This document shows positions 1 to 46,552 of a stretch of 64,000 bases of DNA, in pieces (within the stretch, counting starts at the first letter, position 1; the number at the start of each line of letters is the position of its first letter). A model generated the notes under the pieces. That model saw only the letters and a program-made list of their open reading frames with translations. It was not told where the DNA came from and searched no databases. The position numbers and the translations under genes are program-made. The stretch covers positions 197,925 to 261,924 of the forward strand of contig JBFWNW010000002.1 in NCBI GenBank assembly GCA_050250855.1. The letters run 5' to 3'. The stretch comes from Candidatus Babeliales bacterium (GTDB taxonomy: Bacteria; Babelota; Babeliae; Babelales; JACPOV01).

Positions 1-300
1 TTTGAAAATACTGCCGGTTTTGGTATGGATTTTGATATTCCTTTTGGTACCGATGCTTTTCGCTGGGTAACGTCATTTGAAGCATTTGATTTTAGAGGTC
101 GGCAGCGCATTGATGATAAACGCCCTCATTTTAAATGGGTCAATCGCTTATTTTTGTTCCGTAATCTTTACTTAGTGGCCGGTGCAGATGATTTTATGAG
201 CAAGCATAATGCAAACGGCTTTTTTGGAGGAGGATTACGTTTGTGTGATGATGATTTTAAATACTTCTTTTCATTTATTGGCCTTGGCGGACTTACCTAA
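1..300 (+). CDS. C-terminal fragment of a hypothetical protein (5' end upstream of window)
   Basis: Frame 1 is open from base 1 to the stop at 298-300; track ORF 25..300 is only its Met-initiated tail. Gly/Asp/Phe-rich tail (AGADDFMSKHNANGFFGGGLRLCDDDFKYF) that I cannot assign to a family. Confidence 0.5.
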   Translation, partial: FENTAGFGMDFDIPFGTDAFRWVTSFEAFDFRGRQRIDDKRPHFKWVNRLFLFRNLYLVAGADDFMSKHNANGFFGGGLRLCDDDFKYFFSFIGLGGLT

Positions 301-353
301 ATTCTTGCGTAGGTAATTACTCATACAGTATCTTTTATAAAAAAGGGGATACT

Positions 354-2081
354 ATGAAAAAATTATTATTTTTTCTATTTTTATTTCTATCTATTCAAGC
401 GCCTTTGCAGAGCTCTGAAAAAAAAGAACCATGCAAGCAAGACCCTTATAATTTTAATACATTTTACCTTAAAATTTTTTTAGATACGAAACAGGCCCAT
501 CCTCAAGAAAATTCTGAATATATAAAAAAAGAAGTTTTAGACTGTTTTTATAATCTTTTGGGAGATCAATTAGCTCTTTTATCCGCGGTTAATCTTTATA
601 AGTCTTATTATGAAGCTCTGCTTAAAGCGAAGGAGGATTATAAGCAAAGTTTGGAGGCAGTTGGTGTTAAACCTACTACCCACGGTCTTTATGAAATGAA
701 ATTTTCTCCTTCCTTTGAAGAGCTAAGCTTTATAATGACTAACAGATTATTATTTAAAACACAGATACTCTCTACCAGAGAAAAAATACATATACAAGCC
801 TTGGCTATAGAAAAAGGAAAAGATCCTGTACTCAAGCCTTTGATTACTATTTTAATGAAGAAAAGTGAGTATGATGAAAAGCATAATGATATTCTGGCAT
901 TAGTAGCAACAATTTTAAAAAATGCCGAAAAAATAGAAAATCCTCGCTGCTGGACTTTTATAGAAAAATATACGGGACAAAATCCCTTTAACTATGCAAA
1001 TTCCATACTAGAGATATACAAAGAATGGATTGCTTCATATGCAAAAGATGCTTTATCTAAAAAAGAGTTTGGTGATATAAGCCCTGAGTTATTAAAAACA
1101 TATCTTCAAGCATCATCTATGCACTTGGTTAACATAGAAATTTCTTTTAAGTTTAACGTTCTTATCAATGAAGATTTTTCTAAAGCAGATTATGCTTTTC
1201 TAGAAGATTTTATGTCTGTAATACAAGAATATCAAAAAGATGAAAAAAACATTGCTTGTTTTTCAGACTATCTTAAGAATTTTTTGATAAACAAAGGCTA
1301 TATAAAAAAAGAAGAAGGATGGTCTTTACCATCGCTAAAAGACTCACAAGAAATATTTTTAAAGCAACAGGAATTAAAAAAAGAAGTTGTTATAAAACAG
1401 CTAGAGGAGCATGAAAAGGAAAAAAGATTAGAGCAAAAAGAACAAGAAAAAAAAGGGAAAAAGAAGCAGTCGGCAGTAACTGCAGCACCAGCATTTCTCG
1501 ATGCTTCATGGATTAATAAAAATTATAAAGTTTCAGATAAAAGCATCGTTAGATCAATAAAGGGAGATCAGGTTATTATCGATGACCAAAAAAATAATAT
1601 GCTTATTACGTTGATAATCCCCGATAAAGAGATTTTACGTCCAACAACTATTCCTGCCATAAAATTTGATGAACGAGTAGAGCGCTGGTTTAAAAATCCT
1701 GAAAAAACGTTACATGAAATAGGTTCACTAACACCAGACGAAGAATTAGGAAAGCTGCAGGCTGAAAAGCTTCATCAAAAAAAGCTTGAAATAAAGCGGC
1801 ATAATTTTGCACAGATGGTGGATCCATTTATTATGCTCTTTGGTGCCGATAGTATTCATATTGATAAAAAACAAAATAAAATTCCTAATAAAACGTTGGT
1901 AGGGCAGTTGGAAGATAAAAATACGCATGAAAAATTTGTTGGTGTTTTTGGCTATGCACAAAACCCTAAAACAGGCACCTGGTACCATAGATTTTTTAGC
2001 ACCAAAAAACCACAAGAAATTGCGCAAACCTATTTTAAAGGTGCTACGTTTGATCTAGAGTACCCTCCTCTTGGAGAGTGA
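354..2081 (+). CDS. Secreted hypothetical protein, twin paralogue A (575 aa)
   Basis: Signal peptide MKKLLFFLFLFLSIQAPLQS, purine-rich RBS (AAAAGGGGATACT) before the ATG, K/E-rich linker. The C-terminal ~195 aa are nearly identical to the next gene. Confidence 0.85.
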   Translation: MKKLLFFLFLFLSIQAPLQSSEKKEPCKQDPYNFNTFYLKIFLDTKQAHPQENSEYIKKEVLDCFYNLLGDQLALLSAVNLYKSYYEALLKAKEDYKQSLEAVGVKPTTHGLYEMKFSPSFEELSFIMTNRLLFKTQILSTREKIHIQALAIEKGKDPVLKPLITILMKKSEYDEKHNDILALVATILKNAEKIENPRCWTFIEKYTGQNPFNYANSILEIYKEWIASYAKDALSKKEFGDISPELLKTYLQASSMHLVNIEISFKFNVLINEDFSKADYAFLEDFMSVIQEYQKDEKNIACFSDYLKNFLINKGYIKKEEGWSLPSLKDSQEIFLKQQELKKEVVIKQLEEHEKEKRLEQKEQEKKGKKKQSAVTAAPAFLDASWINKNYKVSDKSIVRSIKGDQVIIDDQKNNMLITLIIPDKEILRPTTIPAIKFDERVERWFKNPEKTLHEIGSLTPDEELGKLQAEKLHQKKLEIKRHNFAQMVDPFIMLFGADSIHIDKKQNKIPNKTLVGQLEDKNTHEKFVGVFGYAQNPKTGTWYHRFFSTKKPQEIAQTYFKGATFDLEYPPLGE

Positions 2082-2095
2082 TGCAGCGTAATTGC
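1490..2095. repeat. Near-identical ~600 bp block, copy 1 (3' part of twin gene A plus ~14 nt past the stop)
   Basis: Aligns without indels to 3285-3890 at a constant offset of 1795 nt. I count roughly a dozen mismatches by eye across 1531-2081. Confidence 0.9.
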
Positions 2096-2148
2096 TTTGG
2101 TATTTAAATCAATATTTTAATATAAAAAAGAGTAAAAAAGAGGATACT

Positions 2149-3876
2149 ATGAAAAAATTATTATTCTTTCTATTTTTATTTCTATCTCAAGCGCCTTTGC
2201 GGAGCTCAGAAAAAAAAGAATCATGCAGCCAAGATTCTTATAATTTTAATAAATTTTATCTAGATATTTTTATGAAAGCAAAAGAGAATTTCCCTCAACA
2301 AAAACCTGAAAACGTTTTATTTTCTTTTGTTGAGCTTTTGGCAGATCAACTTTATCTTTTATCTGCTTTTGATTATTATACAGATTGGCATTCTAAGATG
2401 GCCGTCGCTCATCTTGATTATTTGTATAGTTTGGGCCTCGTGGGAGCTGTAGTAGTCGATGATTATTATTTTTTTGACAAAGCAGTAGTAACTTCTCTTG
2501 AAGAATTAAATTTTATTTTGCATAACAAGTCATTATTTCTAAAAAATAATTTTACTGAAAATGATAAAGCGGAGATTATTGCTTTAGATATAAATGAAAA
2601 AAATAAATCCCTCAGGCCTTGGATTAATATTCTTCTCAAAAAAAATGAATACCAGGAGCAGTATACGAGAGTTATAGCTACTATTTCACTTATTTTAATA
2701 AGGCTCATGGAGGTTGAGAGGAACCCTTATTGGGCATTTATACGTGATGAAACACAAAGCAGTCCCTTTATTTTTTTAAAGCAGATGCTACATACTTTGA
2801 AACAATGGGCTACTGCATATGCTGAGTTTATAGTGGATACTTCTGAAAAAGAACCTGAGAGGTTTACTAAAGAAGAGATTGAAAGAGGACGTATTTGCAA
2901 AGAAGTTTCTTCCGGAATATTGCAACCGGCTCAGCAAGCTTTAATGGTTGAAATGATGTCTAGAAACAAATTTACAGAATCTGAGATTCCTTATTTTAAT
3001 GAATTTTCTTCCATAGTTAATAAATATAAAATGCGTGAAAGTTGTGTTACTAATTTTGCAGAATCTCTTAGTAAGACATTGTTTAGTAAGAAGCTTGTAA
3101 AAAAAGGATTTTTTTTAAAAAATTTTGAACAAACAAAACAAGAATTGCTAAAGAATCTTATAGCAACAAAAGAAGAGCTTGAAAGGCGAGAAGTAGTATC
3201 TGAAAAAAAGGTCTTGCAAGCGCAAAAAAAACAAGAAAAACAAGAGAAAAAGAAGAAGTCAAAAGGCAAGCAGCCAATAGTACCAGCAGCCCTCGATGTT
3301 GCATGGATTAATAAGAGCTATAACGTTTCAGATAAAAGCATCGTTAGCTCAATAAAGGATGATCAGGTTATTATCGATGACCAAAAAAATAATATGCTTA
3401 TTACGTTGATAATCCCCGATAAAGAGATTTTACGTCCAACAACTATTCCTGCCATAAAATTTGATGAACGAGTAGAGCGTTGGTTTAAAAATCCTGAAAA
3501 AACGTTACATGAAATAGGTTCACTAACACCAGACGAAGAATTAGGAAAGCTGCAGGCTGAAAAGCTTCATCAAAAAAAGCTTGAAATAAAGCGGCATAAT
3601 TTTGCACAGATGGTGGATCCGTTTATTATGCTCTTTGGTGCCGATAGTATTCATATTGATAAGAAACAAAATAAAATTCCTAATAAAACGTTGGTAGGGC
3701 AGTTGGAAGATAAAAATACGCATGAAAAGCTTATTGGTGTTTTTGGCTATGCACAAAACCCTAAAACAGGCACTTGGTACCATAGATTTTTTAGTACCAA
3801 AAAACCACAAGAAATTGCGCAAACCTATTTTAAAGGTGCTACGTTTGATCTAGAGTATCCTCCTCTTGGAGAGTGA
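2149..3876 (+). CDS. Secreted hypothetical protein, twin paralogue B (575 aa)
   Basis: Start moved from the track's TTG (2092) to the ATG at 2149, which reproduces the same RBS and MKKLLFFLFLFLS signal peptide as gene A. The N-terminal ~380 aa are homologous to A but strongly diverged; the C-terminal ~195 aa are nearly identical. Confidence 0.85.
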   Translation: MKKLLFFLFLFLSQAPLRSSEKKESCSQDSYNFNKFYLDIFMKAKENFPQQKPENVLFSFVELLADQLYLLSAFDYYTDWHSKMAVAHLDYLYSLGLVGAVVVDDYYFFDKAVVTSLEELNFILHNKSLFLKNNFTENDKAEIIALDINEKNKSLRPWINILLKKNEYQEQYTRVIATISLILIRLMEVERNPYWAFIRDETQSSPFIFLKQMLHTLKQWATAYAEFIVDTSEKEPERFTKEEIERGRICKEVSSGILQPAQQALMVEMMSRNKFTESEIPYFNEFSSIVNKYKMRESCVTNFAESLSKTLFSKKLVKKGFFLKNFEQTKQELLKNLIATKEELERREVVSEKKVLQAQKKQEKQEKKKKSKGKQPIVPAALDVAWINKSYNVSDKSIVSSIKDDQVIIDDQKNNMLITLIIPDKEILRPTTIPAIKFDERVERWFKNPEKTLHEIGSLTPDEELGKLQAEKLHQKKLEIKRHNFAQMVDPFIMLFGADSIHIDKKQNKIPNKTLVGQLEDKNTHEKLIGVFGYAQNPKTGTWYHRFFSTKKPQEIAQTYFKGATFDLEYPPLGE

Positions 3877-3890
3877 TGCGGCGCAATTGT
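3285..3890. repeat. Near-identical ~600 bp block, copy 2
   Basis: See 1490-2095. Similarity continues a few nt beyond the stop (TGATGCGGCGCAATTG vs TGATGCAGCGTAATTG). Confidence 0.9.
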
Positions 3891-4264
3891 TCAGGGCATG
3901 TTAGGCGTATAAGAATATCAGCGGCATAGCGGGCAACTGCTATTTTGCAAAGTGCAACTGCAATGGTATAAAAACAACCTGAATAAGCAGATGTAGTTTG
4001 CCACCATGCATATGGCTTTTGCCATAGATAAGGAGCTTCAATCGAACGCAGCTGCTCTTGTAATACTGTATAGCTTATAATTACGGTGTAGCCGCAATAA
4101 AGCATGGCAGCTTTATGCAGCGTATGTGCCATAAAACAAAGAGGCAATAAGGAATGCCATGGTTTTTCTTGGTGGTATGCAATATAATCTTTTTGAAAAT
4201 ATTCTGATTGTATATTTGAATGTATTGTAAATAAAAGTATTATATATAAAGAGATTTTGTACAT
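3839..4264 (-). CDS. Hypothetical small exported/membrane protein
   Basis: Start taken at the internal Met (MYKISLYIILLFTIHSNIQS, signal-like). Trp/Tyr-rich with no recognisable domain. The 3' end overlaps twin gene B by 38 nt, and the start is only ~19 nt from the divergent gene at 4284, so the call is uncertain. Confidence 0.35.
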   Translation of the reverse strand: MYKISLYIILLFTIHSNIQSEYFQKDYIAYHQEKPWHSLLPLCFMAHTLHKAAMLYCGYTVIISYTVLQEQLRSIEAPYLWQKPYAWWQTTSAYSGCFYTIAVALCKIAVARYAADILIRLTCPEQLRRITLQEEDTLDQT

Positions 4265-4283
4265 ATTATTAGTATGCGGTGTT

Positions 4284-5456
4284 ATGAAAAAAAATATATT
4301 CATAGTTTTTATACTAACTCATTTTTTACAAGGTATGGAGAGATTATTTATTCCGTACCTGGCAAATCTTGCACAATCTGCGCAACAAAGGCCGGAAAAC
4401 GATCTTTTAAAGCAGTCATTTAATAACCTTATGTGTGACCATCATGAAACTATAGCACAGGAATTTAAGCTTACTTCTGTGTTTCAAGCAGCATATAGTG
4501 GCAATACAAAAGAAGTTAAAGAATGGATTTCTTTAATACCGGTATTAGAAAATGCTAAAAATGATCTTGGCAAAACAGCGTATGATATTATTAACCAAAA
4601 AAAACAGCAAGTACAGGATTGGAAAAAACATGCAAATTTTGCAAAGCAAAAAAAAAGAACATCGATTTTTCAAGCAGCACAAAATGGCTCATTGCCAGAA
4701 GTGCAACAATGGGTAAAAGAACATTCTGCTTTAATATGGGCACGAGACGCAGAGGGTAAAACCGTGCTTGATAGAGCATGTTTTTCTCAGCAGCCAGCTT
4801 CAATGTATGTTTTTAATAGCGGTAGCCATGCAAAGCTTATAGAATTTATACAAGAAGAACGTATAAAAAATTACCAATTAGATCCCTCAGTAGATGTTAT
4901 TGCCAATCATGAACGCATAGCGGAAGAAATTGCGTGTCCATCTCTTTTTCAAGCAGTTACTTATGGGCAGCTCTCTTTATTAAAAGCGTGGATAGAAAGG
5001 CATCCATCGTTAGTTTGGTCAAAAAGTATCTATGGCAATGAAACGGCACTTGATAGAGCGTGTTATATCCAGCAATATGGATATTACTCTCCTATCAATG
5101 AAGATATTGTTACACTTTTACAAGAAAAACGTATAGAAAACTATAATTCTAAAAAAAACATAGATCCTATTGCTCAGCATGAAGAAATTGCTCGTGTTAT
5201 TTCATGTCCATCTTTATTTCAAGCGGTATGGGATGGTAATTTGCCATTAGTTAAAGCATGGATAAAAAAGCATCCACAATTACGCTATGCTACTTGTAAA
5301 TCTAAAGATACGGCATTGACTATAGCTTTTTGTTTAGATGAAAATGCAAAGATGGAAAAAAAAGACGAAGATAAATGGGCTCCTATTCTTAACTATTTGA
5401 ACCAAGAGAAAAATGAGTTCCTAAAACAGGATGAGAAATCTTCCTTGATCGAGTAA
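4284..5456 (+). CDS. Exported protein with four dispersed ankyrin-like modules
   Basis: Start at the ATG giving MKKNIFIVFILTHFLQG. Four copies of a module of the form S[IL]FQA..G....[VL][KQ].W[IV]..HP.L.....G.TALDRAC, separated by conserved linkers (QEERIKNY / QEKRIENY ... IA.HE.IA). Confidence 0.75.
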   Translation: MKKNIFIVFILTHFLQGMERLFIPYLANLAQSAQQRPENDLLKQSFNNLMCDHHETIAQEFKLTSVFQAAYSGNTKEVKEWISLIPVLENAKNDLGKTAYDIINQKKQQVQDWKKHANFAKQKKRTSIFQAAQNGSLPEVQQWVKEHSALIWARDAEGKTVLDRACFSQQPASMYVFNSGSHAKLIEFIQEERIKNYQLDPSVDVIANHERIAEEIACPSLFQAVTYGQLSLLKAWIERHPSLVWSKSIYGNETALDRACYIQQYGYYSPINEDIVTLLQEKRIENYNSKKNIDPIAQHEEIARVISCPSLFQAVWDGNLPLVKAWIKKHPQLRYATCKSKDTALTIAFCLDENAKMEKKDEDKWAPILNYLNQEKNEFLKQDEKSSLIE

Positions 5457-6219: not shown

Positions 6220-6307
6220 TAAAAAAAACTATTTTTAGATTAATGATATTTTTTTATTAAGTTTAATGGAATAGTTGGTTAAGTAAAATAAATATTTTTT
6301 ATAGTAT

Positions 6308-6756
6308 TATTTTGTTTATTATATTTTTAACAATTCATTATCTCACAGTCCCTCTCCGGGACGGGACCAGCCCCTTTTGCTTGTACAAAAGGGCTGGACA
6401 AAAATACACCAACATGCTGTTGGATTGCACTCTCGCTCAGACATCAACCACTCACTCTTCGGGTTTTCAACCCTCGATTTCAGGTCGATGATTCGCTACC
6501 GGCGTGAATGTATAAAAAATAGTTTAATGCACCGGTACGCTCATCTGTTTGAGAGCTTCTCAGTTTTCTTGCCCGGCGTAGCTTGATGCGAAGCCTGGGT
6601 AAAAAACTGGAAGCCGAGTTATGACCCTTCGATACAATTTCGATTTCATCGAAATCACTCAGGATGAGCGAAAGCCCTTGCGTGCCCGTCTGGGTGTTAA
6701 GGGTATTGGGCACGCAATACCTTTGTGCCCTGCACCCGGCATGAGGGTGCCATAAG
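6308..6756. repeat. Mosaic GC-rich intergenic element (M-type), copy 1
   Basis: Shares an AT-rich lead-in and module A (CTCACAGTCCCTCTCCGGGACGGGACCAGCCCCTTTT) with 21165-21241. Its right end (GTGTTAAGGGTATTGGGCACGCAATACC...GGCATGAGGGTGCCATAAG) is the reverse complement of 29990-30060. Contains the hairpin CCAGCCCCTTTTG-N-CAAAAGGGCTGG. Confidence 0.9.
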
Positions 6757-6778
6757 ATAATATAGAGAAAAGTAGTTT

Positions 6779-7372: not shown

Positions 7373-8224
7373 TTAAACAATAATACAGCAAGTAGCTTTT
7401 TGTTGTTCAACTGGTTGTTCTGTAGGATTTTTAGCTTCTTTTGTTTTTTCTTCAATAAAGCTGAATCCTTCTTGATAGCTTTCATAATCTTTTTTGCCTT
7501 CTACTGATTGCAAAAGCTGAGCCATTCTTTTTTGTGCAACAACAAGCGGCGTTTCACCTTGTTTGTTTTTTTGCAAAAATGCTTTAGCTGGTATTTGTTT
7601 TAAGCAGTCCAGAACTTTTTTGTTAGGATTCATCGCAAAATGATGCAAAACTGTATTTTCTTGCTCATCCAACTTTTCAGCATAAGGAATTATAGTATAT
7701 TTTAGGGCAAACCTTAGATCGTCTTGCGTAGCAGAAGGTGCAAACGTTGGCAATGGATTATGATATTTACGTAAAATTTGCTTGCAAGCAATCAGTTGGT
7801 TAAAAAGTTTAAGTTTTGCTGGATCAAAATTTAAATCATCATCAGAAAATGCAGTTTCACTGGTGAAAAGTTCTTTTACTTGGCTATTGATAATGACAAA
7901 AGCGTTTTCTTTGCTTTTATTTTCTTTATTAAAGAGATCTGCGCTGCAGAATGACGCAACTACTTCAAGCATTTCCGGGTCAGCCTTCTGTGCAAAGGTA
8001 TGCAAAAGTGTATTGCCATCTTTATCTTGTTCTGTTAAAGAAAGTGTATTCAATTGCAGAGCAGTTCTTAAATTTTCAGCGCGATTATTTGCCGTAGATT
8101 CAGTGATCCATTGCTGTACCTGCTGTTGATTGCCGTTGTGCAAATGAGGAAATTCAGTTTGCTGTTCTGTTGCGTAAAGAGAACATAGGCAAAGAGCTGC
8201 TGAAACTATTACTAACTTTTTCAT
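7373..8224 (-). CDS. Ankyrin-repeat protein with signal peptide and C-terminal CaaX-like CIIV
   Basis: MKKLVIVSAALCLCSLYA signal; ANK-like units (DKDGNTLLHTFAQ..., ENTVLHHFAMN..., GETPLVVAQ). The last residues ...ATCCIIV-stop were verified codon by codon. Confidence 0.8.
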   Translation of the reverse strand: MKKLVIVSAALCLCSLYATEQQTEFPHLHNGNQQQVQQWITESTANNRAENLRTALQLNTLSLTEQDKDGNTLLHTFAQKADPEMLEVVASFCSADLFNKENKSKENAFVIINSQVKELFTSETAFSDDDLNFDPAKLKLFNQLIACKQILRKYHNPLPTFAPSATQDDLRFALKYTIIPYAEKLDEQENTVLHHFAMNPNKKVLDCLKQIPAKAFLQKNKQGETPLVVAQKRMAQLLQSVEGKKDYESYQEGFSFIEEKTKEAKNPTEQPVEQQKATCCIIV

Positions 8225-14026: not shown

Positions 14027-15223
14027 GTGACTGACTATGAAAAGCAGTTTCAAACATTAAAAGCTGGCACTGCGCAGGTAGTTCCAGAAACTGAATTTTT
14101 GAAAAAATTAAAAAAAGGTAAAAAATTACGTATAAAACTTGGCATGGATCCCACAGCGCCAGATTTGCATTTGGGCCATGCAGTTGTGCTTTCTAAAATG
14201 CGTGAGTTTCAAGATTTAGGACATGAAGTAATTTTTTTAATTGGTGATTTTACAGCGCGTATCGGTGACCCAACAGGAAAATCAAAAACGCGTCCTCCTT
14301 TAACCGAAGAAGAAATTGCACGTAATACTGCCACCTATTTTGAACAAGTAAGTCGCATTTTAGATCCTAAAAAAGTTTCTATTCGCTTTAATGCAGAATG
14401 GCTTGATAAACTTTCTGCAAAAGATATTATCAACATAACTTCAAAAATTACGGTAGCGCAGCTTATTGAGCGTGAAGATTTTGCTAATCGTATCAAAAAG
14501 CATGAGCCTATTAGTTTTCATGAACTGTTGTATCCTCTTTGCCAGGCGTATGATTCTGTAGAATTAAAAGCAGATGTTGAACTTGGTGGTACTGACCAAA
14601 CATTTAATTTATTAATGGGGCGCGATTTGCAAGAACGCTTTGGGCAAGAGGGGCAAGTTATTATGACGCTGCCAATTTTAGAGGGGCTTGATGGCGTACA
14701 AAAAATGTCAAAATCATTGGGCAATTATGTTGGTCTTGCAGAACAGGCTTCACAAGCATTTGGTAAATTGATGTCAATGCCCGATAGTATAATGTGGCGT
14801 TATTTAAAATTGTTACTTGCAATGCCAGATGCAGAAGTTAGCCGCTTGCAAGAGCAAGTTGCTGCTGGTACTACGCATCCCATGGCACTCAAAAAGAAAA
14901 TGGCGCATGATATTATTGCAAAATTTTGGTCACCAGATCAGGCAGTTGAAGCTGAACGCCAATTTGAAGCGGTATTTCAGCAGCGTGATTATTCAAAAGC
15001 AACAGAATTTGTTATGCCGGCAGATTCACCAAACCCGATCTGGATTATTGAGCTTATGAAACTACTCGGCACTATAGATTCATCTTCACAAGGCCGCCGA
15101 TTAGTGCAAGAAGGTGCTGTAAAAATTGATGAGAAAAAAGTAGCTGATGTACAAGAAAAAATTCATTGGCGCACTGGCATGCAGGTAAAGATTGGGAAAC
15201 ATCATATTTTTAAACTGATGTGA
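14027..15223 (+). CDS. tyrS: Tyrosine--tRNA ligase
   Basis: GTG start; HLGH and KMSKS signatures; GDFTARIGDPTGK; C-terminal S4-like domain (GRRLVQEGAVKIDEKKV). Confidence 0.9.
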   Translation: MTDYEKQFQTLKAGTAQVVPETEFLKKLKKGKKLRIKLGMDPTAPDLHLGHAVVLSKMREFQDLGHEVIFLIGDFTARIGDPTGKSKTRPPLTEEEIARNTATYFEQVSRILDPKKVSIRFNAEWLDKLSAKDIINITSKITVAQLIEREDFANRIKKHEPISFHELLYPLCQAYDSVELKADVELGGTDQTFNLLMGRDLQERFGQEGQVIMTLPILEGLDGVQKMSKSLGNYVGLAEQASQAFGKLMSMPDSIMWRYLKLLLAMPDAEVSRLQEQVAAGTTHPMALKKKMAHDIIAKFWSPDQAVEAERQFEAVFQQRDYSKATEFVMPADSPNPIWIIELMKLLGTIDSSSQGRRLVQEGAVKIDEKKVADVQEKIHWRTGMQVKIGKHHIFKLM

Positions 15224-15226
15224 TTC

Positions 15227-15256: not shown

Positions 15257-15299
15257 GACAAAGATAGTTTCACACTCATAACCCAAAGGAGATAGTGTT

Positions 15300-16022
15300 A
15301 TGAAATTTTTCCGTAGTTTATCCTTTATTGCCTTTTTGGCAGTAGCTTGTGTTCATGCAGGAGAAGCACAAAGACTTTCTGGTGAATTAAAACAATTGGA
15401 TATGCAACTTGATGGCTTGACCCAGTCTCTTAATAAATTGGGAGAGGTGAAGTCAGAGCCTAAGAAAGCACCAAGAAATGTTTTTGAGCCTAAGCAACAA
15501 GTTATATTAAATGTAGAAAAACTACATTATATAATTTCATCTGAAGCTACTAAGTCATTGCTTGATGTTTTCCGTCAAGGATTAGCTGTGAATCCAATGC
15601 TAGCTTGGACTGATTTAAATAACATTCAAGCATCTGATAATTATGAAAAACCTATTGTTTTGATTCAAGCAATGGGAGATAAAAATGCATTATTTACACC
15701 TGCGCATAGTGGTGGATATTCTGCTATAACAGAAAAAATATTAGATGTTAATCATAAGACAAAAAAACCTATTTTTATTATTTTGTCATCTAAAATTCCT
15801 GCAATTCAATCTAATGTTGAATGGTTTAAAAAAACACTTGCAGATCAGCTTAACGAACAAGATCATAAGAGCTTTGTAGCGAATGGAGGCACTATTTACT
15901 TCTTTACAACTAATGATGCTTTTTCAGAAATAATTAATTTTATGGATAATAACAGTTTCACAGATTATAATCAAAAGCAATTTAATGAAATTCATCAGCA
16001 GCTTAAATCAGAAGTATTATAA
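15300..16022 (+). CDS. Secreted protein, family S member 1
   Basis: Signal peptide MKFFRSLSFIAFLAVACVHA, then a heptad-like LSGELKQLDMQLDGLTQSLNKLG, a linker and an alpha/beta-looking C-terminal domain. N-terminus nearly identical to 16228. Confidence 0.8.
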   Translation: MKFFRSLSFIAFLAVACVHAGEAQRLSGELKQLDMQLDGLTQSLNKLGEVKSEPKKAPRNVFEPKQQVILNVEKLHYIISSEATKSLLDVFRQGLAVNPMLAWTDLNNIQASDNYEKPIVLIQAMGDKNALFTPAHSGGYSAITEKILDVNHKTKKPIFIILSSKIPAIQSNVEWFKKTLADQLNEQDHKSFVANGGTIYFFTTNDAFSEIINFMDNNSFTDYNQKQFNEIHQQLKSEVL

Positions 16023-16047
16023 AATTAAGATCTTTTATTTTATGTCA

Positions 16048-16227: not shown

Positions 16228-16968
16228 ATGAAATTTTTCCGTAGTTTATCTTTTATTGTTTTTCTGGCAACTGCCTGCGCTCATGCTGGTGAAGCACAAA
16301 GACTTTCTGGTGAATTAAAAAATTTAAATATGCAATTGGATGGCTTGAATGATTCTCTTGGCAAATTAGGTATGATGCCAACTAGAACGCCAAAAGAAGA
16401 GCCAAAAGAAAAGTCTGCATATGAACGACAAATGGAGCTAGAAAGAGAGAGAGAAGAAAGAGAAAGTAAAAAAGAAGTGGCAGTTTTGGCTACACAAGCA
16501 GATCAACAATCAGCAACCGATATTGTTAAACAATTGCCGGATTTAAAAATTCAATTTAACGCATCTCCTAAATCTGTAATACCTCCTCATCTTGCTAATA
16601 ATAAAGATTATGCTTTAGTTTTTTTATTTGATAAAGATGTTCCGTATATTCAAGAAGAAGAACATGAACAACAAAAAGCAACTATTGCAGCTGTAGTTGA
16701 ACATTTTAAAAAGAATTATAAAGATTTGATAGAGAAATCTGCAAGTAGTATAACAAATCCTATATATGTTTTCTTTAGTGACAGAGTTTCTCAGCTCTAT
16801 TCTTCAAATCTAGAAAGAGCATTGAAGAATGATTTAGAATTAGGAAAAATATTTACTCCAAAAAGACTAGAGCATTTTCAAATAATTACCCCAGAAGGGG
16901 GCAATTATAAGCTTAGTCAAAATGCGGTGCAAACTATATACAGTTTTGTACAGCAGTTTGAAAAATAA
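16228..16968 (+). CDS. Secreted protein, family S member 2
   Basis: MKFFRSLSFIVFLATACAHAGEAQRLSGELKNLNMQLDGL..., an E/R/K-rich linker and a divergent C-terminal domain. Confidence 0.8.
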   Translation: MKFFRSLSFIVFLATACAHAGEAQRLSGELKNLNMQLDGLNDSLGKLGMMPTRTPKEEPKEKSAYERQMELEREREERESKKEVAVLATQADQQSATDIVKQLPDLKIQFNASPKSVIPPHLANNKDYALVFLFDKDVPYIQEEEHEQQKATIAAVVEHFKKNYKDLIEKSASSITNPIYVFFSDRVSQLYSSNLERALKNDLELGKIFTPKRLEHFQIITPEGGNYKLSQNAVQTIYSFVQQFEK

Positions 16969-17032: not shown

Positions 17033-18154
17033 ATGAAAAAACTTCTTCTCTTTTTATCAATAACTTCTCTTTATGCAGCGGAAATGCCGGATATTTCTGG
17101 TTTGCAGCAAGAACTGAATACATTAAATAATGAACTTGGAAATTTATCACAAAAATTGCAAGTAACGCAGCAATCACGGTTTGCTCCACCTCCAATAATT
17201 CAACCAGCGCCAACTGGTGGTTCTGAAAAACCAGCGCCAAGCGGCCAACCTGGCCCGCAAAGAGGGGGGCAGCAGCAAGCGATGCCGGTTATTTATAATG
17301 ATGAGAGTTATTTTAACCAAAAATTTCCTGAGTTAGCACAACAAGTTGGATTGCAAAACTATACAGGCTATAATATTACCAATATAGCAAATGTTCCTAA
17401 TTCAGATAAAGCAATAATACTTATTAATGCACAGAACAATTATGCTGTAGGATCTGCACTTACTAAACAAGTAGTTGCAGAGATTACGAAAAAAATCAAA
17501 TATCCTATTGCTATCGGTATTTCAAATCAATCTTTTGACCCAGCTTGGTTATCAGACCGCATAAAAGAAGGAAAAGTCCTTATCGTTGATACAAACAATT
17601 TTAGCCAAGATAATAAAAATGAAATTTCTTATTATGTTCACAAACCATTAGTATCTACAGGCTCAATTCCCGTTTATTTTTCGTTTCTTGGAGAGTATGA
17701 AGCTATGAAAATATTAAAACAATTAGTGCCGGGTATTGAGAAAAATTTGGGAAATTTTGTTGAAATAGAATCAGGAACAAAAGCGCCAGCTGTAAACTTT
17801 ACTCAAGCACAAAAAGGTATTTATATTGGAAAGATTAGAACTCGCGGCGCTGACCATGCGCTACATACTAATACCCCAAGCAGATTAAATAACTTTATTA
17901 ATGCATATCAAACACCAATTGCTATTGTTATATACGCCGGAGCAGGTGAATTTAATGTTGAACTAGGTAATATTAAAGATATAGCAAAGAAAATATTAGA
18001 AGAAGGTCTTAAAGCAAAAGGAATCCTATCTATAACTCAAAATTTCGAAAACTTTCATGGTTTTGCTTTTGAATTAGACAAGGGCAATGTAGTAACAAGT
18101 CCTTCATATGCTAAAACAAGAATTGAAGAGCTCAAAAAACTTTTGGGTAACTAA
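17033..18154 (+). CDS. Secreted protein, family S member 3 (apparently two C-terminal domain copies)
   Basis: MKKLLLFLSITSLYAAEMPDISGLQQELNTLNNELGNLSQKLQ, a P/Q/G linker, then two units with the pattern K[AG]II[LY]I... and [YQ][PT]IAI[GV]I. Confidence 0.8.
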   Translation: MKKLLLFLSITSLYAAEMPDISGLQQELNTLNNELGNLSQKLQVTQQSRFAPPPIIQPAPTGGSEKPAPSGQPGPQRGGQQQAMPVIYNDESYFNQKFPELAQQVGLQNYTGYNITNIANVPNSDKAIILINAQNNYAVGSALTKQVVAEITKKIKYPIAIGISNQSFDPAWLSDRIKEGKVLIVDTNNFSQDNKNEISYYVHKPLVSTGSIPVYFSFLGEYEAMKILKQLVPGIEKNLGNFVEIESGTKAPAVNFTQAQKGIYIGKIRTRGADHALHTNTPSRLNNFINAYQTPIAIVIYAGAGEFNVELGNIKDIAKKILEEGLKAKGILSITQNFENFHGFAFELDKGNVVTSPSYAKTRIEELKKLLGN

Positions 18155-18214: not shown

Positions 18215-18913
18215 ATGAAAAAACTTTTGCTTTTCTTTTCTCTTTTTTCTTTGCATGCAGCAGAAATGCCGAATATTTCTGGTTTGCAGCAAGAGCTGAA
18301 TACATTAAATAATGAACTTGGAAAATTATCAAAAAAATTAGAGGCAACGCAGCATCCGCAGGTTACTCCGCCGCCAACAGGTCACCTAGGTCCTAAAGGA
18401 GGTCAGCAGCAAAAAATTCAAGTGCTGTTTCACGGCACCGATATAAATAATGCTCAAACATTTTTTAACCAGTTTGGCTTGCAGGGTAACTTTGAGTTTC
18501 TAAAATTACAAGATAATCTTAATATTATACAACCTGCACAAAAGGGTATTATATTGGTAAATTTTTCGGCAGGAAGGCAAAGAAATGTATTACCTTTAGA
18601 GCAAGATTTAAAAAAGAGTATAGATTTCTTTGATCAGCCTATTATTATTATGGTAAAACCAGGAACTGCTCAAAATCTGCAGCCATACGATGGCCCTGTG
18701 GCAAAAATTGCACAAGAAAAGATTGCGGATACTGATAGCTCAAAATATTCTGACCAAGAAAATAAAAAAAGAATGGAAGAGGCATTAAAAAATCCAAAAG
18801 TAGCAAATATTAAAGGCTTTGGCTTTTGGTATACTCCTGACTTTACTATAATCAAGCAAGAAGATGATGCATATCAAAATAAAATCGATCAGCTCAAAAA
18901 ACTTCTGCAGTAA
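18215..18913 (+). CDS. Secreted protein, family S member 4
   Basis: MKKLLLFFSLFSLHAAEMPNISGLQQELNTLNNELGKLSKKLE. The 5' ~130 nt are highly similar to 17033-17160. Confidence 0.8.
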   Translation: MKKLLLFFSLFSLHAAEMPNISGLQQELNTLNNELGKLSKKLEATQHPQVTPPPTGHLGPKGGQQQKIQVLFHGTDINNAQTFFNQFGLQGNFEFLKLQDNLNIIQPAQKGIILVNFSAGRQRNVLPLEQDLKKSIDFFDQPIIIMVKPGTAQNLQPYDGPVAKIAQEKIADTDSSKYSDQENKKRMEEALKNPKVANIKGFGFWYTPDFTIIKQEDDAYQNKIDQLKKLLQ

Positions 18914-31783: not shown

Positions 31784-32332
31784 TTATTTACCTGCTTTGA
31801 TGATAGGTCTTGAAAGAAGTTCTTTTGCAGCTTCACTTAAATTTGTGTCTTTAGATTTTGAAGCTTTAATTAAATAAGATTTTAAATTATTAGTATAGTT
31901 ATACATATCAGTTACTAATTTTTCTATAGGTGTTGTTGGATTTTGTATTTTTATTTCCTGATATAATCTTAAAGGATTGCTTCCTATATTAACTATAGCT
32001 ATTCCTAGAGCTCTATCTTTTCTTGGCAAATTTCTTGCAATTTCTTGAGCCTTTTCTAGAAAATCTTTTGTTTTTACAGCTAGTCGATAGGTGCCCTTTG
32101 TTAGTCCAGTATCATATTGCTGTCCTTGAGTTGGCTGCATAGGCTGTTGAACGGGTCTAGTAGGTTGCATAGGCTGTTGAACTGGCTGCATAGGTTGCTG
32201 AACGGGTCTAGTAGGCTGCATAGGCTGTTGAACTGGCTGAGTAGTAGGTTTTTTTCTGCCTCTGAGTTCTTGAAAAGAAAAAGTATAAGCGGGCATTCCT
32301 AAAAAAATAAGTACAAGCAGATGGCGTTTCAT
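31784..32332 (-). CDS. Secreted protein with Pro/Gln-rich tandem repeats
   Basis: Signal peptide MKRHLLVLIFLGMPAYT, then PVQQPMQ units with PTR spacers and a C-terminal non-repetitive domain. Confidence 0.75.
   Translation of the reverse strand: MKRHLLVLIFLGMPAYTFSFQELRGRKKPTTQPVQQPMQPTRPVQQPMQPVQQPMQPTRPVQQPMQPTQGQQYDTGLTKGTYRLAVKTKDFLEKAQEIARNLPRKDRALGIAIVNIGSNPLRLYQEIKIQNPTTPIEKLVTDMYNYTNNLKSYLIKASKSKDTNLSEAAKELLSRPIIKAGK
32125..32235. repeat. In-frame tandem DNA repeat encoding PVQQPMQ(PTR) units
   Basis: CTGCATAGG[CT]TG[TC]TGAAC units alternating with GGGTCTAGTAGG on the plus strand; four heptapeptide copies in the minus-strand protein. Confidence 0.85.
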
Positions 32333-42627: not shown

Positions 42628-43133
42628 TGCGCTCTCAGGAGCAAGGATCATTATTACTTAACATAGCACTGGTGCTCAGTATACTTCTTGTGCTCATGAG
42701 TATAGCAATTCCTCGGTTGCCTTTTATGCAACGTATGGTACTTCGTTTAGAGCTTGAAAAGATGCACAGCTTTTTTCATTATATGCAGCAACGTGCACTT
42801 GCTTTACATGAAGATCTTACTATTACTTTTGATCCCATTCATAATAGGTATTATGCTGATACGTATAAAGAATCGTTAGCGCCCGGTGTTCAATTTGGCG
42901 TACTTTTAGGGTCTTCAGGTCCTCCTTCAAAACCTTCTGGCCAAATTCTTTCTCCTATTACGTTTAAAAATAATAAAGCTGTTTTTTATAAAGATGGCAC
43001 GATTGCAGCGGGTACCGTGTATATAACTGATCATAGTAAACATTATTTATATGCACTCAGTAGCCCTGTTTCACAAATTTCTTATTTGCGTATGTATTCT
43101 TATGCTCGCAATCGCTGGATTCCTCTGCAATGA
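42624..43133 (+). CDS. GspH/FimT-like pseudopilin candidate with degenerate prepilin motif
   Basis: N-terminal QGSLLLNIALVLSILLVLMSIAI (Gly then a hydrophobic helix, but Asn where Glu+5 is expected). C-terminal F.KDGTIAAGTVYIT resembles GspH-fold minor pilins. ATGA overlaps on both sides. Confidence 0.45.
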   Translation: MMRSQEQGSLLLNIALVLSILLVLMSIAIPRLPFMQRMVLRLELEKMHSFFHYMQQRALALHEDLTITFDPIHNRYYADTYKESLAPGVQFGVLLGSSGPPSKPSGQILSPITFKNNKAVFYKDGTIAAGTVYITDHSKHYLYALSSPVSQISYLRMYSYARNRWIPLQ

Positions 43134-45823
43134 GATTACTGATAAAAATGTCGGCAGCTCTTCTGATAGGCCTAGGCCTTACCCTTGCTATTTTGCAGCA
43201 TGAGGAAAGTTTTAAGCAGGCTTTTCATGGACGTTTGAAAAATCTTTTTGAAGCAACCTTTAATTGTGAAGTTTCTTATGAACTTGCATCGATTAATTTT
43301 TTTTCAGGGCGCTTAGTTGCGCATCATGTTTTTGTGAAAGCTCTTGATAAGAAATGGTCTTGGCATGCAGATACGTTTACCTTATCACTCGCGCCAAGTT
43401 TATTATTTATAGCAGGAAAATGTGGCCTTGATGTAGTGATTGAAAACATGCAGGCAGAATCTTTAATGGATAATGGAATTCCTGCCATTTATGAACATAT
43501 AGTAAGTTTTATCTATGGTGCTACTGATATTCCTTTTACGCTCAAGCGCTTAATGATTCGGCGAGGAAGTCTTGCCATAACCGATGCAGCACATTTTTTA
43601 AAAGGAGAGTTTAATTTTTCAAGTGAAATTGTCATGCAGCTTCATCGAATTCTTTCATCATTTTATTTGACGCATGCACATGTTTCATTATGGGATATTC
43701 CTTGCTTGCAGGGCGCTCATGTACGCATGAGTTTAGAAAAAGTAGGCAATAAAGCATTGAGTATTACTGCGCAAGGAAAACTGACGCTTGATAAAGATTT
43801 GCAGGATGAGGCAGATTGTTACCTTTCTGCAAACTATGATGGAAGGCAGGGTTGGGTGTATTGTAACAATAAAGATAATTCATTACAGCAGCAAATTAGA
43901 ATTCATCCTGATAGTTGGTGTAGTATAGAAGGTATTTTTCCCGTGGCGTTATTTAATAAATTTTTCTTTGTATCATTTCACGATCTTTCTGGTGTAGGTA
44001 AAAATTCCCTTAAATTTTTTTATCATGATGATTATAAAATGCAGGGCATGCTAGTGCTTGATAATGCGTATTATAAAGGTATTCCATTGGGTACGATACG
44101 GAGCTTTTTAAATAAAGATAATGCGTTGTGGGATGGTACGCTTTTATTTGATCATGATGCATGGGGAGCATTACAAGGAGCTTGGCATTGGCATGAAGAA
44201 AAGCATGAAGGTGAAATTTTTTTAAAAAATTCAAAAACATTACAATCGCCCCTTACCTATTTTACGATCAATCCCGGCAATGTTGATATCCGCTGTTCAT
44301 ACACTAAAGATACGATACTTGGTCGCTATGCTCTTGTTGCGCATCACAGAATTTTGCAAACTATGCTCCAAACAGGAGGAACGTTTGCGCTAGCAGATGA
44401 TGCAATTGTTGCAAAAGGTATATTTGATAAAGATTCTTATAGCCTTGTTGGTCGTTTTAATCCTTCGCTAATGCTTACGCATTTTATGTACCAGGATAGC
44501 GATAAAAATACGCTTTTTAGTGTGGCATCTAATCCGCACGCTTGTAATGAACTGCAGGCATTTTTAGATTATCGATGCATACAGAGAATATTAAAAGAAA
44601 TATATAATATTGAAATGAGAGGGCAGGGGCATCTTGCTGTTCATGGAACGCTCAAGGATGACTTGTTAGTTACTGGCTCTCTTTCATTACATGACGGGCA
44701 CATTCAGGTTCCTTATACGTATAATTTTATACAAAATTTAGAAGGATCTTTTAATCTTGATATTAAACAGAAATCTCTGTGGTTGCATGATTTGTTATTA
44801 AAATTACACAAAGGAGCTATTGCAGCGCCACGAGCTACTTTTTGTTGGGATGAATATAAAGAATCTTTTTTCATGCATATGCCGCTTTTTTTTGAAAAGT
44901 TATTTTTAAATATGCAAAAAGATATATTCACTGAATGTTCTGGTGCCGTAAGGGTGCACAAAGAAGAACAAGAAAAAATTATACTTAAGGGAGGAATATC
45001 GTTAGATGGTGGTGAATGTAAAAAAAATATTTTTTCATCAGCATTACAAAAAAATAGTATTCCTGCTTTATATGGTAGTGGCAAATTAGGTATAGAATGT
45101 GATTTGTATATAAAAAGTAAAAAACCATTACGCATACAAACCTCTTTTTTAAATACTGATATTGCACTTGATATAGCTATAAAAGAAAAATTGTATAATC
45201 CATCTTTTACTGGTACTATTACGCTTCAAGGAGGATCACTTTTGTTTCCCTATCGCCCCTTGCATATTACGCGTGGCTTGATTTATTTTCTGCCTCATCA
45301 ACTCGATGATCCTGTTATTGAGCTGATTGCAAAAGGAAAAGTTAAAAAATATCACGTTACGTTGCGTACGAGTGGTTCATTGCGCAAACCGCATATTAGC
45401 TTGGAATCAACACCTCCTTTAACAGAAGAACAAATCTTAACATTACTACTTGCAGGCTCAGAAGAAGGATCAGTAGCGCTGGTTATGCCAACGGTTATTA
45501 TGCAAAATATGGAGCAACTTCTTTTTGGTCCTGAACAATCATATTCAAAGCTTGAGACCTATTTTAAAAATCTATTGGGGCCACTAAAACATGTACGCTT
45601 TGTTCCTACTTTTTTTGATCAAACAGCACGAGGTGGCTTTAGAGGAACTATTTTAGTTGATGTTTCTGAACGTCTTCATGGTTTAATTCAAAAGAATTTT
45701 AGCTTGCCAGAAGATACTAAAATAGAGATAGAATATCTTCTATCTGATGATGTCACTTTGCGTGCATTAAAAGATCAGCGTGGAGACGTTGGTGGCGAAG
45801 TTGAAATGCGGTGGAAATTTTAG
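43130..45823 (+). CDS. tamB: TamB-like (DUF490/AsmA-superfamily) translocation and assembly protein
   Basis: N-terminal anchor MSAALLIGLGLTLAIL. C-terminal block ...ISLESTPPLTEEQILTLLLAGSEEG... ending ...GGEVEMRWKF is typical of DUF490. Confidence 0.7.
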   Translation: MRLLIKMSAALLIGLGLTLAILQHEESFKQAFHGRLKNLFEATFNCEVSYELASINFFSGRLVAHHVFVKALDKKWSWHADTFTLSLAPSLLFIAGKCGLDVVIENMQAESLMDNGIPAIYEHIVSFIYGATDIPFTLKRLMIRRGSLAITDAAHFLKGEFNFSSEIVMQLHRILSSFYLTHAHVSLWDIPCLQGAHVRMSLEKVGNKALSITAQGKLTLDKDLQDEADCYLSANYDGRQGWVYCNNKDNSLQQQIRIHPDSWCSIEGIFPVALFNKFFFVSFHDLSGVGKNSLKFFYHDDYKMQGMLVLDNAYYKGIPLGTIRSFLNKDNALWDGTLLFDHDAWGALQGAWHWHEEKHEGEIFLKNSKTLQSPLTYFTINPGNVDIRCSYTKDTILGRYALVAHHRILQTMLQTGGTFALADDAIVAKGIFDKDSYSLVGRFNPSLMLTHFMYQDSDKNTLFSVASNPHACNELQAFLDYRCIQRILKEIYNIEMRGQGHLAVHGTLKDDLLVTGSLSLHDGHIQVPYTYNFIQNLEGSFNLDIKQKSLWLHDLLLKLHKGAIAAPRATFCWDEYKESFFMHMPLFFEKLFLNMQKDIFTECSGAVRVHKEEQEKIILKGGISLDGGECKKNIFSSALQKNSIPALYGSGKLGIECDLYIKSKKPLRIQTSFLNTDIALDIAIKEKLYNPSFTGTITLQGGSLLFPYRPLHITRGLIYFLPHQLDDPVIELIAKGKVKKYHVTLRTSGSLRKPHISLESTPPLTEEQILTLLLAGSEEGSVALVMPTVIMQNMEQLLFGPEQSYSKLETYFKNLLGPLKHVRFVPTFFDQTARGGFRGTILVDVSERLHGLIQKNFSLPEDTKIEIEYLLSDDVTLRALKDQRGDVGGEVEMRWKF

Positions 45824-45862: not shown

Positions 45863-46552
45863 ATGAAGATATATACAAAAATAATTTTTCTTTCTTTTCT
45901 TTTTTTTACCTCTCTTCAAGCGAATTTTTTTGCTGATTCTATTCTCTATGCGCAGAGAATTTTAACAAAACCATCTTCACGCAAAATTTTTAAATCTTTA
46001 TTTGTCCCGTACAAAGAGCCTGATGCAAAAAAAGTTTTATGTGGTCTTATTGATAATGAAAAAAAATCTATCTCTTTTGCGCAATATGTTTTAAGTGATA
46101 AAGAAATTACTGAGGCTTTATCTCAAGCTCATGCGCGAGGCGTAAAGATACAGGGAATCGTTGATCATTCGGCATTGCATCATGGTAATGAAAAAGTGAC
46201 TGATTTGGTGCAGCAGGGTATTGATATTCTTGTTTATAAAAAGCCGTATTCAATTATGCATAATAAATATTATGTTTTTGAAGAAAATTTTTTTGGAAAA
46301 CCAGTCGTTTTTATGGGTTCTGCTAATGCTAGTTTTTCTGGTTTTAGAAAAAATAAAGAAAGCATCATGGTATTTAACAACAAAGCATGTTGCCAAACGT
46401 ATAAAAAAGAGTTTAGAGCCTTGCAAAAAGAAGTACAAGCACAAAAAATGTATAGCACTCAGAAACAAAGAGAACAGCAAACAGCATTTTATATGCTTTT
46501 AAAAACTTTTAGGGAATTCAAGCGGCTTATATTTTTAGGAAATTTGTTATAA
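45863..46552 (+). CDS. Exported single-HKD phospholipase D / Nuc-like protein
   Basis: Signal peptide MKIYTKIIFLSFLFFTSLQA; HKD motif MHNKYYVF...VFMGSANASFSG. Confidence 0.8.
   Translation: MKIYTKIIFLSFLFFTSLQANFFADSILYAQRILTKPSSRKIFKSLFVPYKEPDAKKVLCGLIDNEKKSISFAQYVLSDKEITEALSQAHARGVKIQGIVDHSALHHGNEKVTDLVQQGIDILVYKKPYSIMHNKYYVFEENFFGKPVVFMGSANASFSGFRKNKESIMVFNNKACCQTYKKEFRALQKEVQAQKMYSTQKQREQQTAFYMLLKTFREFKRLIFLGNLL

Follow-up and report, generated by a model that had tools for sequence, protein, structure and literature searches.

Tandem paralogues with converted ends and diverged N-terminal domains in a Candidatus Babeliales genome, and the undescribed protein family to which they belong

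In H. pylori, the Bab (BabA/BabB/BabC), Hop, Sab and Hom paralogues combine near-identical 5' and 3' regions with a divergent middle, a pattern maintained by intragenomic gene conversion, a form of concerted evolution (PMC4552749, citing Pride and Blaser 2002). The variable middle of the Bab/Hop proteins carries specificity (PMC4552749). These genes are the closest known parallel to a pair of neighbouring genes, here called A and B, at the start of a 64-kb stretch of the genome of a Candidatus Babeliales bacterium (contig JBFWNW010000002.1). This stretch is referred to below as the window; coordinates are window positions and protein residues follow the numbering of A. Judged by their synonymous sites, the near-identical ends of A and B come from gene conversion, not from selection on the protein. 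Conversion of paralogue ends is an evolutionary phenomenon already known in kind; the family of A and B and its C-terminal domain (C-domain) are undescribed in the libraries and literature searched. The Bab proteins are outer-membrane adhesins with a C-terminal beta-barrel anchor and are encoded at dispersed loci, whereas A and B lie in tandem and end in a predicted soluble alpha/beta tail with invariant His/Asp/His/Arg residues. No sequence or fold relationship connects the two systems. For A and B an outer-membrane beta-barrel of the Bab/Hop type is ruled out by the alpha/beta model and by C-termini, across the family, that read ...YPPLGE or ...FPALPKK and are not aromatic.

The second system for comparison is the secretome of the phylum itself. 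The Dependentiae (TM6), which live as obligate intracellular parasites of protists, are a widespread phylum with very few cultured representatives and a large, mostly ORFan secretome whose action on the host is almost unknown. Components of the type II secretion system (T2SS) are core genes of TM6 (PMC4776705), and in the cultured Chromulinavorax 44% of coding sequences carry signal peptides, within an ORFan-rich secretome presumed to manipulate the host (PMC6561590). With the secretomes of Chromulinavorax and Babela the twins share the phylum, a Sec signal peptide, duplication and presumed host manipulation (PMC6561590), but they differ from the ankyrin/ORFan proteins in having neither ankyrin nor any other known repeat or domain. 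An ankyrin-repeat effector was rejected on the same ground: Pfam finds no Ank in A or B, though both flanking orphan-region genes carry it. The pair and its parts are laid out as follows, with synonymous (dS) and nonsynonymous (dN) divergences given as Nei-Gojobori estimates of A against B.

25..300, plus strand: 3' end of the MlaD-domain gene that lies upstream and closes a T2SS-type cluster, seen whole on contig L001 of a metagenome-assembled genome (MAG)
338..467, plus strand: 5' homogenised tract, copy A (ribosome-binding site (RBS), start codon, signal peptide and ~38 first codons; partner 2133-2259)
354..2081, plus strand: gene A, 575 aa (signal peptide aa 1-21, helical N-terminal domain ~22-340, K/E-rich polybasic linker ~341-385, C-domain 386-575)
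417..1373, plus strand: variable all-helical N-terminal domain (N-domain) of A, 32% identical to B (dS 0.94, dN 0.67; compared with other members' N-domains by HHalign)
1374..1508, plus strand: charged K/E-rich linker of A with polybasic KKGKKK; conversion breakpoint 1497 at its 3' edge
1497..2091, plus strand: 3' gene-conversion tract, copy A (partner 3292-3886)
1509..2078, plus strand: C-terminal alpha/beta domain of A (from alignment A2, described below, and an AlphaFold2 model)
1686-1688, 1800-1802, 1821-1823 and 1986-1991, plus strand: codons in A for the invariant family residues W445, H483, D490 and H545-R546
2082..2148, plus strand: spacer between the twins, ~30 nt of it unique, bounded by the 3' tract end and the 5' tract start
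2133..2259, plus strand: 5' homogenised tract, copy B (from repeat search and breakpoint test)
2149..3876, plus strand: gene B, 575 aa, with the architecture of A and a signal peptide one residue shorter
3292..3886, plus strand: 3' gene-conversion tract, copy B
3304..3873, plus strand: C-domain of B

The first-pass annotation had described two genes of exactly 575 codons at an offset of 1795 nt, and the same-strand open reading frames (ORFs) 354..2081 and 2149..3876 bear this out; the ATG of gene B lies inside a longer, TTG-initiated ORF (2092..3876). The equal length of 575 aa seems to be a coincidence, because four paralogues on another contig measure 592, 578, 580 and 595 aa. By inspection, both proteins start with a basic n-region, a hydrophobic core of 11-12 residues and small residues before the likely cut, MKKLLFFLFLFLSIQAPLQS/SEKK. 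A lipoprotein is ruled out, as there is no lipobox.

Along a global DNA alignment read in 60-nt windows, A and B agree at 55/60 and 49/60 positions over 354-473, at 21-43/60 in the middle and at 57-60/60 over 1530-2069. Protein identity is 53% along the whole length; it is 32% within the first 380 aa and reaches ~96-97% in the last 195 aa. The central ~1 kb is homologous but strongly diverged, as first described, and the similarity of the 5' leaders, RBS and signal peptide included, holds equally: an independent repeat search pairs 338-392 with 2133-2187 at 96% and 395-518 with 2187-2310 at 77%. The same search pairs 1484-1783 with 3279-3578 at 95%. With the offset fixed at 1795, A and B differ at 16 positions over 1520-2081 (nine of them synonymous) and show no indel, and only nine mismatches lie within 1566-2078. 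The earlier statement that the last ~600 nt align without indels therefore stands, but its count of a dozen mismatches does not, since ~24 occur over 1490-2095; the 98% identity is true of 1566-2081. Similarly, likeness does extend to ~3890, where the stretch had been closed, whereas gene B itself stops at 3876; the likeness of A and B fades ~10-15 nt beyond the stop codon. Breakpoint analysis of the two copies by maximum chi-square places the switches at nt 467, where mismatch rises from 8% to 46% (chi2 58), and at nt 1497, where it falls from 42% to 3% (chi2 286). The binomial P for the clean 3' tail is ~1e-60.

The synonymous sites follow the same mosaic:

leader, aa 1-40: dS 0.18-0.28, dN 0.089
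N-domain, aa 41-340: dS 0.94, dN 0.67
linker: dS 1.3, dN 0.55
C-domain, aa 406-575: dS 0.071, dN 0.005

Between N-domain and C-domain dS falls thirteen-fold within a single gene pair, and the likeness extends into the RBS and beyond the stop; selection on the protein is ruled out by this, which points to gene conversion. The first-pass annotation had left conversion of the ends and diversifying selection on the middle side by side, and the dS contrast between the two copies decides for conversion. The competing account does without recombination: A and B would have duplicated once, long ago, and selection alone, very strongly purifying in the C-domain and diversifying in the N-domain, would have produced the discontinuity. 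It can point to the C-domain being the conserved part throughout the family, to true orthologues that are 79% identical in the C-domain as against 66% in the N-domain, and to a high N-domain dN/dS of ~0.7. Nonetheless, we regard it as most improbable. The synonymous sites of the tail are near-identical too (seven synonymous differences in 170 codons; dS 0.07 as against 0.94), the likeness runs into the RBS and beyond the stop codon, and tails of paralogues are more alike than tails of orthologues. On this reading of the alignments, selection alone is effectively refuted by the dS contrast.

The comparison of paralogues with orthologues comes from contig Ga0456318_000003 (L019, 376 kb), which carries four tandem members, g1-g4, of the lengths given above. 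Protein identity between its g2 and g3 rises from 37% in the N part to 96% in the C part (dS 1.9 vs 0.15), and the switch at codon ~383 falls on the same domain boundary as in A and B. Further, g3 and g4 share the 5' leader at 82-89% nucleotide identity, with 82% for the first 40 codons, and a 94% tract at codons 446-530. The N-domain of g3 is nearest to L005c2 of another genome (66%) and only 35-39% identical to its own neighbours, while its C-domain is nearest to the neighbour g2 (94.6%), with the orthologue L005c2 at 79%. From this conflict it follows that the duplications predate the species split and that the tails were homogenised afterwards: in this second genome, C-domains cluster by genome and N-domains by orthologue. 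Concerted evolution here affects the C-domain and, in fewer cases, the leader, and no other part. Family pairs in tandem or side by side also occur in L005, L013 and L010, and not every pair has been converted recently, the L005 pair having 75% nucleotide identity in the tail.

A variant of the conversion account would have the tail imported from a third genomic copy or from another strain, as a module swap striking both genes, in place of copying between neighbours. The window spans just 64 kb, so that family members elsewhere in the genome are possible, and the C-domain is demonstrably modular. We think this variant unlikely: no third copy was found in the window (tblastn), among the MAG proteins returned or in any collection, L019 shows the same neighbour-to-neighbour pattern, and the mechanism would in any case still be gene conversion. 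Copying between neighbours is preferred. The duplication of A and B is old, their N-domains being 32% identical with synonymous sites near saturation. Non-reciprocal homologous recombination between the neighbours has overwritten the 3' ~560-600 bp that encode the C-domain and, less recently, the ~130-bp leader with RBS, signal peptide and first residues. The conversion tract halts at the boundary of linker and C-domain, where the diverged N-domain DNA is too unlike for heteroduplex formation. The arrays thus offer a clean, twice-replicated case of domain-bounded concerted evolution, in which the 'business end' is homogenised and a putative specificity domain diverges, and they can help to explain how reduced genomes diversify their sets of effectors.

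A near-identical tandem repeat of this kind could also be an assembly artefact, either a collapsed or duplicated repeat or strain variants joined in tandem. A public MAG indeed failed to assemble through the region, and the junction piece 1826-3493 is present in the window only. In the databases only two partial proteins come close to A and B, both from this MAG, GCA_050181685.1, also Candidatus Babeliales. Its contig 23 (L001 9648-11472) is 100% identical to window 1-1825 and ends one base short of an A/G difference between the copies, at the close of a 140-nt run in which A and B are identical. Its contig 4 begins at window 3494, the counterpart of position 1699 in A, and continues downstream with two differences in 3383 nt; window and MAG are therefore separate assemblies. 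The two contig ends overlap by exactly 127 nt, the mark of a true two-copy repeat in an assembly graph built with k=127, and each end bears the single-nucleotide polymorphisms of its own copy. In all this the MAG contig ends fit a two-copy graph, with copy-specific polymorphisms linked to copy-specific flanks. In addition, the copies differ at 16 tail positions and completely over the middle 1 kb, and the same architecture, with up to four copies, stands on the 376-kb contig of another, unrelated sample. The artefact, which the first-pass annotation had named as one threat to its own claim, has hardly any probability left: the independent MAG breaks at the repeat, the pattern recurs elsewhere, and the A/B repeat is a real two-copy locus. 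Repeats of the A/B type account for short-read assembly breaks at such loci.

To look for relatives, a profile of A and B was searched with HMMER against 1.84 billion cluster representatives (E<1e-3). It matched 32 proteins, namely the two A/B fragments of the MAG itself and 30 distant relatives (E 6e-10 to 1e-3). The relatives are mostly 460-680 aa long, and profile positions ~380-593 align to their C-terminus; P0013 and P0021 align over the full length of the profile. At no more than 30% identity to any other member, the twins form a highly divergent branch. Alignment A2, of 27 C-domains, holds W445, H483, D490 and H545 invariant, with the spacing H483-x6-D490, and F446, F485, G497, G517, F532, Y534 and R546 near-invariant. 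Its consensus reads WF-NP--AL--QGY ... H-F---VD-Y ... G-F-Y-ID---G-WYHR-F ... [FY]P-L, and a hidden Markov model built from it recovers both twins at E 1e-61. Most full-length members start with a hydrophobic signal sequence, and most have a K/R-dense tract, with up to 10 basic residues in 12, in the 60 aa before the C-domain. The N-domains can barely be aligned; HHalign of A+B against all others gives a probability of 80.5% and E 1.3e-5 at equivalent positions, and two other N-domain subgroups match each other at 97.7% in a profile-profile comparison. The C-domain is an autonomous module, because it also stands alone behind a signal peptide in P0011 (219 aa) and P0017 (198 aa), and behind Sel1 repeats in P0005, in L010 and in the 723-aa neighbour of P0011. 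The proposed architecture of signal peptide, variable module, K/E-rich linker and common module holds over the ~30 distant relatives.

The C-domain belongs to no known family, as had been suspected. Pfam and NCBIfam searches of A and B returned DUF5511 at E 3e-4, below the cutoff, and noise only; Pfam on the 27 C-domains and 10 full-length relatives gave nothing consistent, with Sel1 repeats only in P0005; and sequence and profile searches of the Protein Data Bank (PDB) gave no accepted match for A, B or the C-domain. No further family copies were found in the window by tblastn. A word-index search for homologues retrieved two relatives and otherwise only fragments from the organism itself, scans of genome, metagenome and viral contigs with the twins' own peptides had no match, and the exact protein products of A and B have no record. 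An SH2 domain, a fold of about 100 aa that begins with W-[YF]-H/F-G...R, was considered for the WYHR motif and rejected, as the match to TXK SH2 reaches only E 0.29, ~30 residues follow the motif and it lies on the last sheet strand of the model. A polymorphic toxin, which would pair a conserved N-terminal delivery region with a variable C-terminal toxin and a neighbouring immunity gene, was rejected because the polarity is reversed (variable N, conserved C) and the next gene is the paralogue itself. The locus reveals a phylum-wide secreted family that is annotated in no database. So far, the family appears only in Dependentiae (TM6)-type bacteria: every readable context is bacterial, low in GC and rich in ankyrin, leucine-rich-repeat and Sel1 neighbours, the member BDC35150.1 comes from Candidatus Dependentiae bacterium Noda2021, and the DnaK beside P0011 is nearest to Dependentiae/TM6 proteins.

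Several features of individual members stand apart from this. In P0009, P0010, P0023-P0026, P0028 and L019 g2-g4, Met-(Glu/Asp)-x-Pro comes directly after the predicted signal peptide in nearly every case (SLNG/MDAPQ, SIVG/MEKEQ), and the gene calls of P0015 and P0019 begin at that Met; alternative initiation, giving exported and non-exported isoforms in the main clade, is a possibility suggested by these starts. The extreme C-terminus carries a conserved [FY]-P-x-L (YPPL, FPPL, FPAL, FPEL), found in the twins as LEYPPLGE at 2055-2078 and 3850-3873, and its resemblance to eukaryotic YPxL-type short linear motifs is purely speculative. P0006 (1099 aa) consists of nine ~95-aa repeats with DEAYFRNPEKV...L..FL, and the WF-NPEK helix of the profile matches it nine times (E 2e-8); it has no other portion of the C-domain, and the match probably reflects a common short helix motif and not homology. 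P0014 (229 aa) has a complete C-domain ending in FPPLG, then the start of a second beta-meander copy, DGSRVLEENDFIVRIADPKNKAEIVLYKVT, and then ends, which suggests that a single protein carries tandem C-domains or that two genes have fused, the contig being short.

Structure prediction of the C-domain gave a confident model: AlphaFold2 on the 27-sequence alignment reached a predicted local distance difference test (pLDDT) of 86.3 and a predicted template-modelling (TM) score of 0.84, whereas on the two full-length sequences alone the pLDDT was 39 and the model useless. The C-domain is modelled as a mixed alpha/beta globule of seven strands and 5-6 helices. It starts with a three-stranded beta-meander, followed by two short helices with the WF motif, a low-confidence loop and a pair of helices that ends in H483 and bears D490. 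An antiparallel sheet of four strands, with WYHR on the last of them, leads to a C-terminal helix and the conserved but low-confidence [FY]PxL tail. Foldseek against the PDB found nothing better than E 0.03 or TM 0.25, the list being headed by weak matches of NTF2/VirB8/SnoaL type, namely VirB8-like OrfG, OCP C-domain, SnoaL-like and cystatin-like chains (E >= 0.03, TM <= 0.25, where likeness to the NTF2-like/VirB8-like cone would call for a TM of about 0.5 or more). In LAS zinc peptidases (VanX/VanY of M15, the Hedgehog N-domain, lysostaphin of M23), H-x(3-6)-D and a distal His are zinc ligands and the second motif is HxH or ExxH. The C-domain resembles them in its H-x6-D and a distal His ~55 residues on, on a strand of the four-stranded antiparallel sheet, but has no HxH or ExxH. 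A LAS zinc peptidase was rejected, given the missing second motif, no LAS structure among the Foldseek PDB matches (best TM <0.25) and no Pfam M15/M23.

Against the viral structures of BFVD, the seven best Foldseek matches are all Mimiviridae proteins, most of them annotated as ankyrin-repeat (probability 0.97-1.0, TM 0.34-0.55). The top matches are Megavirus lba L7Y3V4, Megavirus courdo11 K7Z8W3, Bodo saltans virus A0A2H4UWK3, Hyperionvirus A0A3G5A7Q4 and Edafosvirus A0A3G4ZT96. These top five have E 6e-6 to 2e-4, probability 1.0 and TM 0.42-0.55 over 174-191 columns, and ranks six and seven have E 2e-3 and 5e-3. Identity to the C-domain is only 12-19%, with root-mean-square deviations of 7-11 A, and scans of IMG/VR with other family members had no match, so that the viral link is not confirmed by sequence. 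It is a lead suggested by the model and not an established homology. Like the Mimiviridae, Dependentiae parasitise protists. If the structural link were confirmed, it would be a case of a shared toolkit between bacterial and viral parasites of protists. A bolder and quite tentative proposal is that the C-domain is an undescribed enzymatic fold with a His-Asp-His(Arg) site, exchanged horizontally in protist hosts between Dependentiae and Mimiviridae ankyrin proteins, on interchangeable targeting modules (helical domain, Sel1, ankyrin) and, in bacteria, with a polybasic tract resembling a nuclear localisation signal. If true, bacterial and viral protist parasites would have a 'warhead' in common, which conversion would keep uniform in the bacterial arrays while targeting domains diversify.

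The genomic setting bears on where these proteins act. On the MAG, the cluster upstream of the twins reads GspF-GspG-two pseudopilins-two unknown genes-MlaD (Pfam on L001), and the twins lie 54 nt downstream of this MlaD cluster on the same strand. Other members adjoin T2SSE, pseudopilin and TamB genes or a prepilin peptidase gene. Main-clade loci are syntenic with the window's T2SSE-pseudopilin-TamB-PLD-RluA-MgtE block (T2SSE 72% identical): in L019, L005, L007-9 and L021-22, an array of 1-4 family genes is flanked by TamB/pseudopilin/T2SSE on one side and PLD-RluA-MgtE on the other. The window has an empty 40-nt spacer at this site, 45823-45863, between TamB (43130..45823) and PLD (45863..46552), and the twins are elsewhere.

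We hold it rather probable that A and B are old tandem paralogues with converted ends, and Sec/T2SS-exported, host-directed proteins with a shared C-terminal activity. Beyond the paralogy, family membership, domain model and conversion set out above, we infer the export route, the host action and the function. A Sec signal peptide is present by inspection and would route A and B through Sec; from there the T2SS encoded upstream would probably release them toward the host, making them putative type II secretion substrates. The variable N-domain may supply target specificity, with the C-domain as a common activity. Possibly, to go by its conserved residues, the C-domain holds a hydrolytic or ligand-binding site, most likely His/Asp-based and either metal-dependent or two-histidine. 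The invariant His, Asp and His with the near-invariant Arg could form a two-histidine acid/base pair or an H-x6-D...H metal triad, and together with the conserved polybasic tract they may point to an anionic target, e.g. nucleic acid or phosphoinositide. A homologue in the cultured strain Noda2021, a confident C-domain model and few invariant candidate active-site residues provide an experimental handle.

The main alternative, a serious rival, makes the family an envelope or periplasmic component, such as an accessory of the T2SS or type IV pilus or a factor in outer-membrane biogenesis, in which the C-domain docks and the variable N-domain is exposed at the surface as in adhesins or antigens. 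The envelope neighbours recur (GspF/G/pseudopilins and MlaD; T2SSE, pseudopilin and TamB; prepilin peptidase), and a conserved anchor with a variable exposed part and converted termini is the H. pylori Bab/Hop pattern (PMC4552749). We nevertheless find it rather unlikely. Prediction makes the C-domain a soluble alpha/beta globule and not a beta-barrel, the termini are E or K and not aromatic, and the domain also occurs alone or behind Sel1 repeats. Further, 1-4 copies per locus, with the syntenic site empty in the window's genome, would be unusual for parts of a machinery, and the invariant His/Asp/His/Arg suggest a site and not a docking surface.

Export to the host and a catalytic C-domain, the reading preferred here, have points of their own against them. 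In a diderm, a Sec signal peptide means export to the periplasm only. The T2SS adjacency is partly one conserved syntenic block, in which the family genes run on the strand opposite to T2SSE, and scans for promoter and terminator consensus at the twins did no better than shuffles, so that no call joins the twins to the upstream operon or separates them from it. The catalytic idea draws on only four or five invariant polar or aromatic residues, of which H483, D490 and H545 are grouped by alignment, and no annotated homologue backs any function. On the evolutionary side, two pieces of the C-domain, its 3' end of A type and its 5' part of B type, come from the window's assembly alone, and none of the collections searched contains an orthologue of the twins themselves.

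Around the twins, a 154-aa hydrophobic ORF without Pfam match (3839-4303, minus strand) runs toward gene B and overlaps the final 38 nt of that gene; the MAG annotation calls this ORF too. Signal-peptide ankyrin proteins lie at 4287-5453 and 7376-8224. Two further tandem signal-peptide pairs are encoded at 15300..16022 and 16228..16968 (span 15213-16968) and at 17033..18154 and 18215..18913 (span 17031-18913). In both, the upstream region, the signal peptide and the first ~45-60 residues are 79-96% identical in nucleotides, with the rest diverged (undetectable or 35% in amino acids), and a coiled-coil-like motif, (S/N)G(E)L(K/Q)xLNxxL, is common to all four proteins. A kept leader and a diverged body looks general for the secreted paralogues of this genome, to judge from these pairs. 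Among the syntenic loci, L021 (14829-15894) and L022 (14525-16126) are near-identical sister-sample contigs; T2SSE is intact in L022 (533 aa) and split in L021 into ORFs of 216 and 151 aa with a DDE transposase nearby, possibly through ongoing pseudogenisation or an assembly error.

The window also contains a family of dispersed, relatively GC-rich intergenic repeats of 50-240 nt, 80-97% identical and in both orientations, with no Rfam or tRNA match. Copies pair at 6295-6533 and 21158-21382, at 21525-21665 and 30315-30455, and, inverted, at 6694-6758 and 29988-30052, with a further inverted copy at 24971-25062. They could be an element resembling miniature inverted-repeat transposable elements or repetitive extragenic palindromes, or a small-RNA family. 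Finally, imperfect tandem repeats of 30/21 nt (TGCATAGGCTGTTGAAC...) lie at 32126-32257, within an ORF on the minus strand (31784..32332), where they would encode a short peptide repeat.

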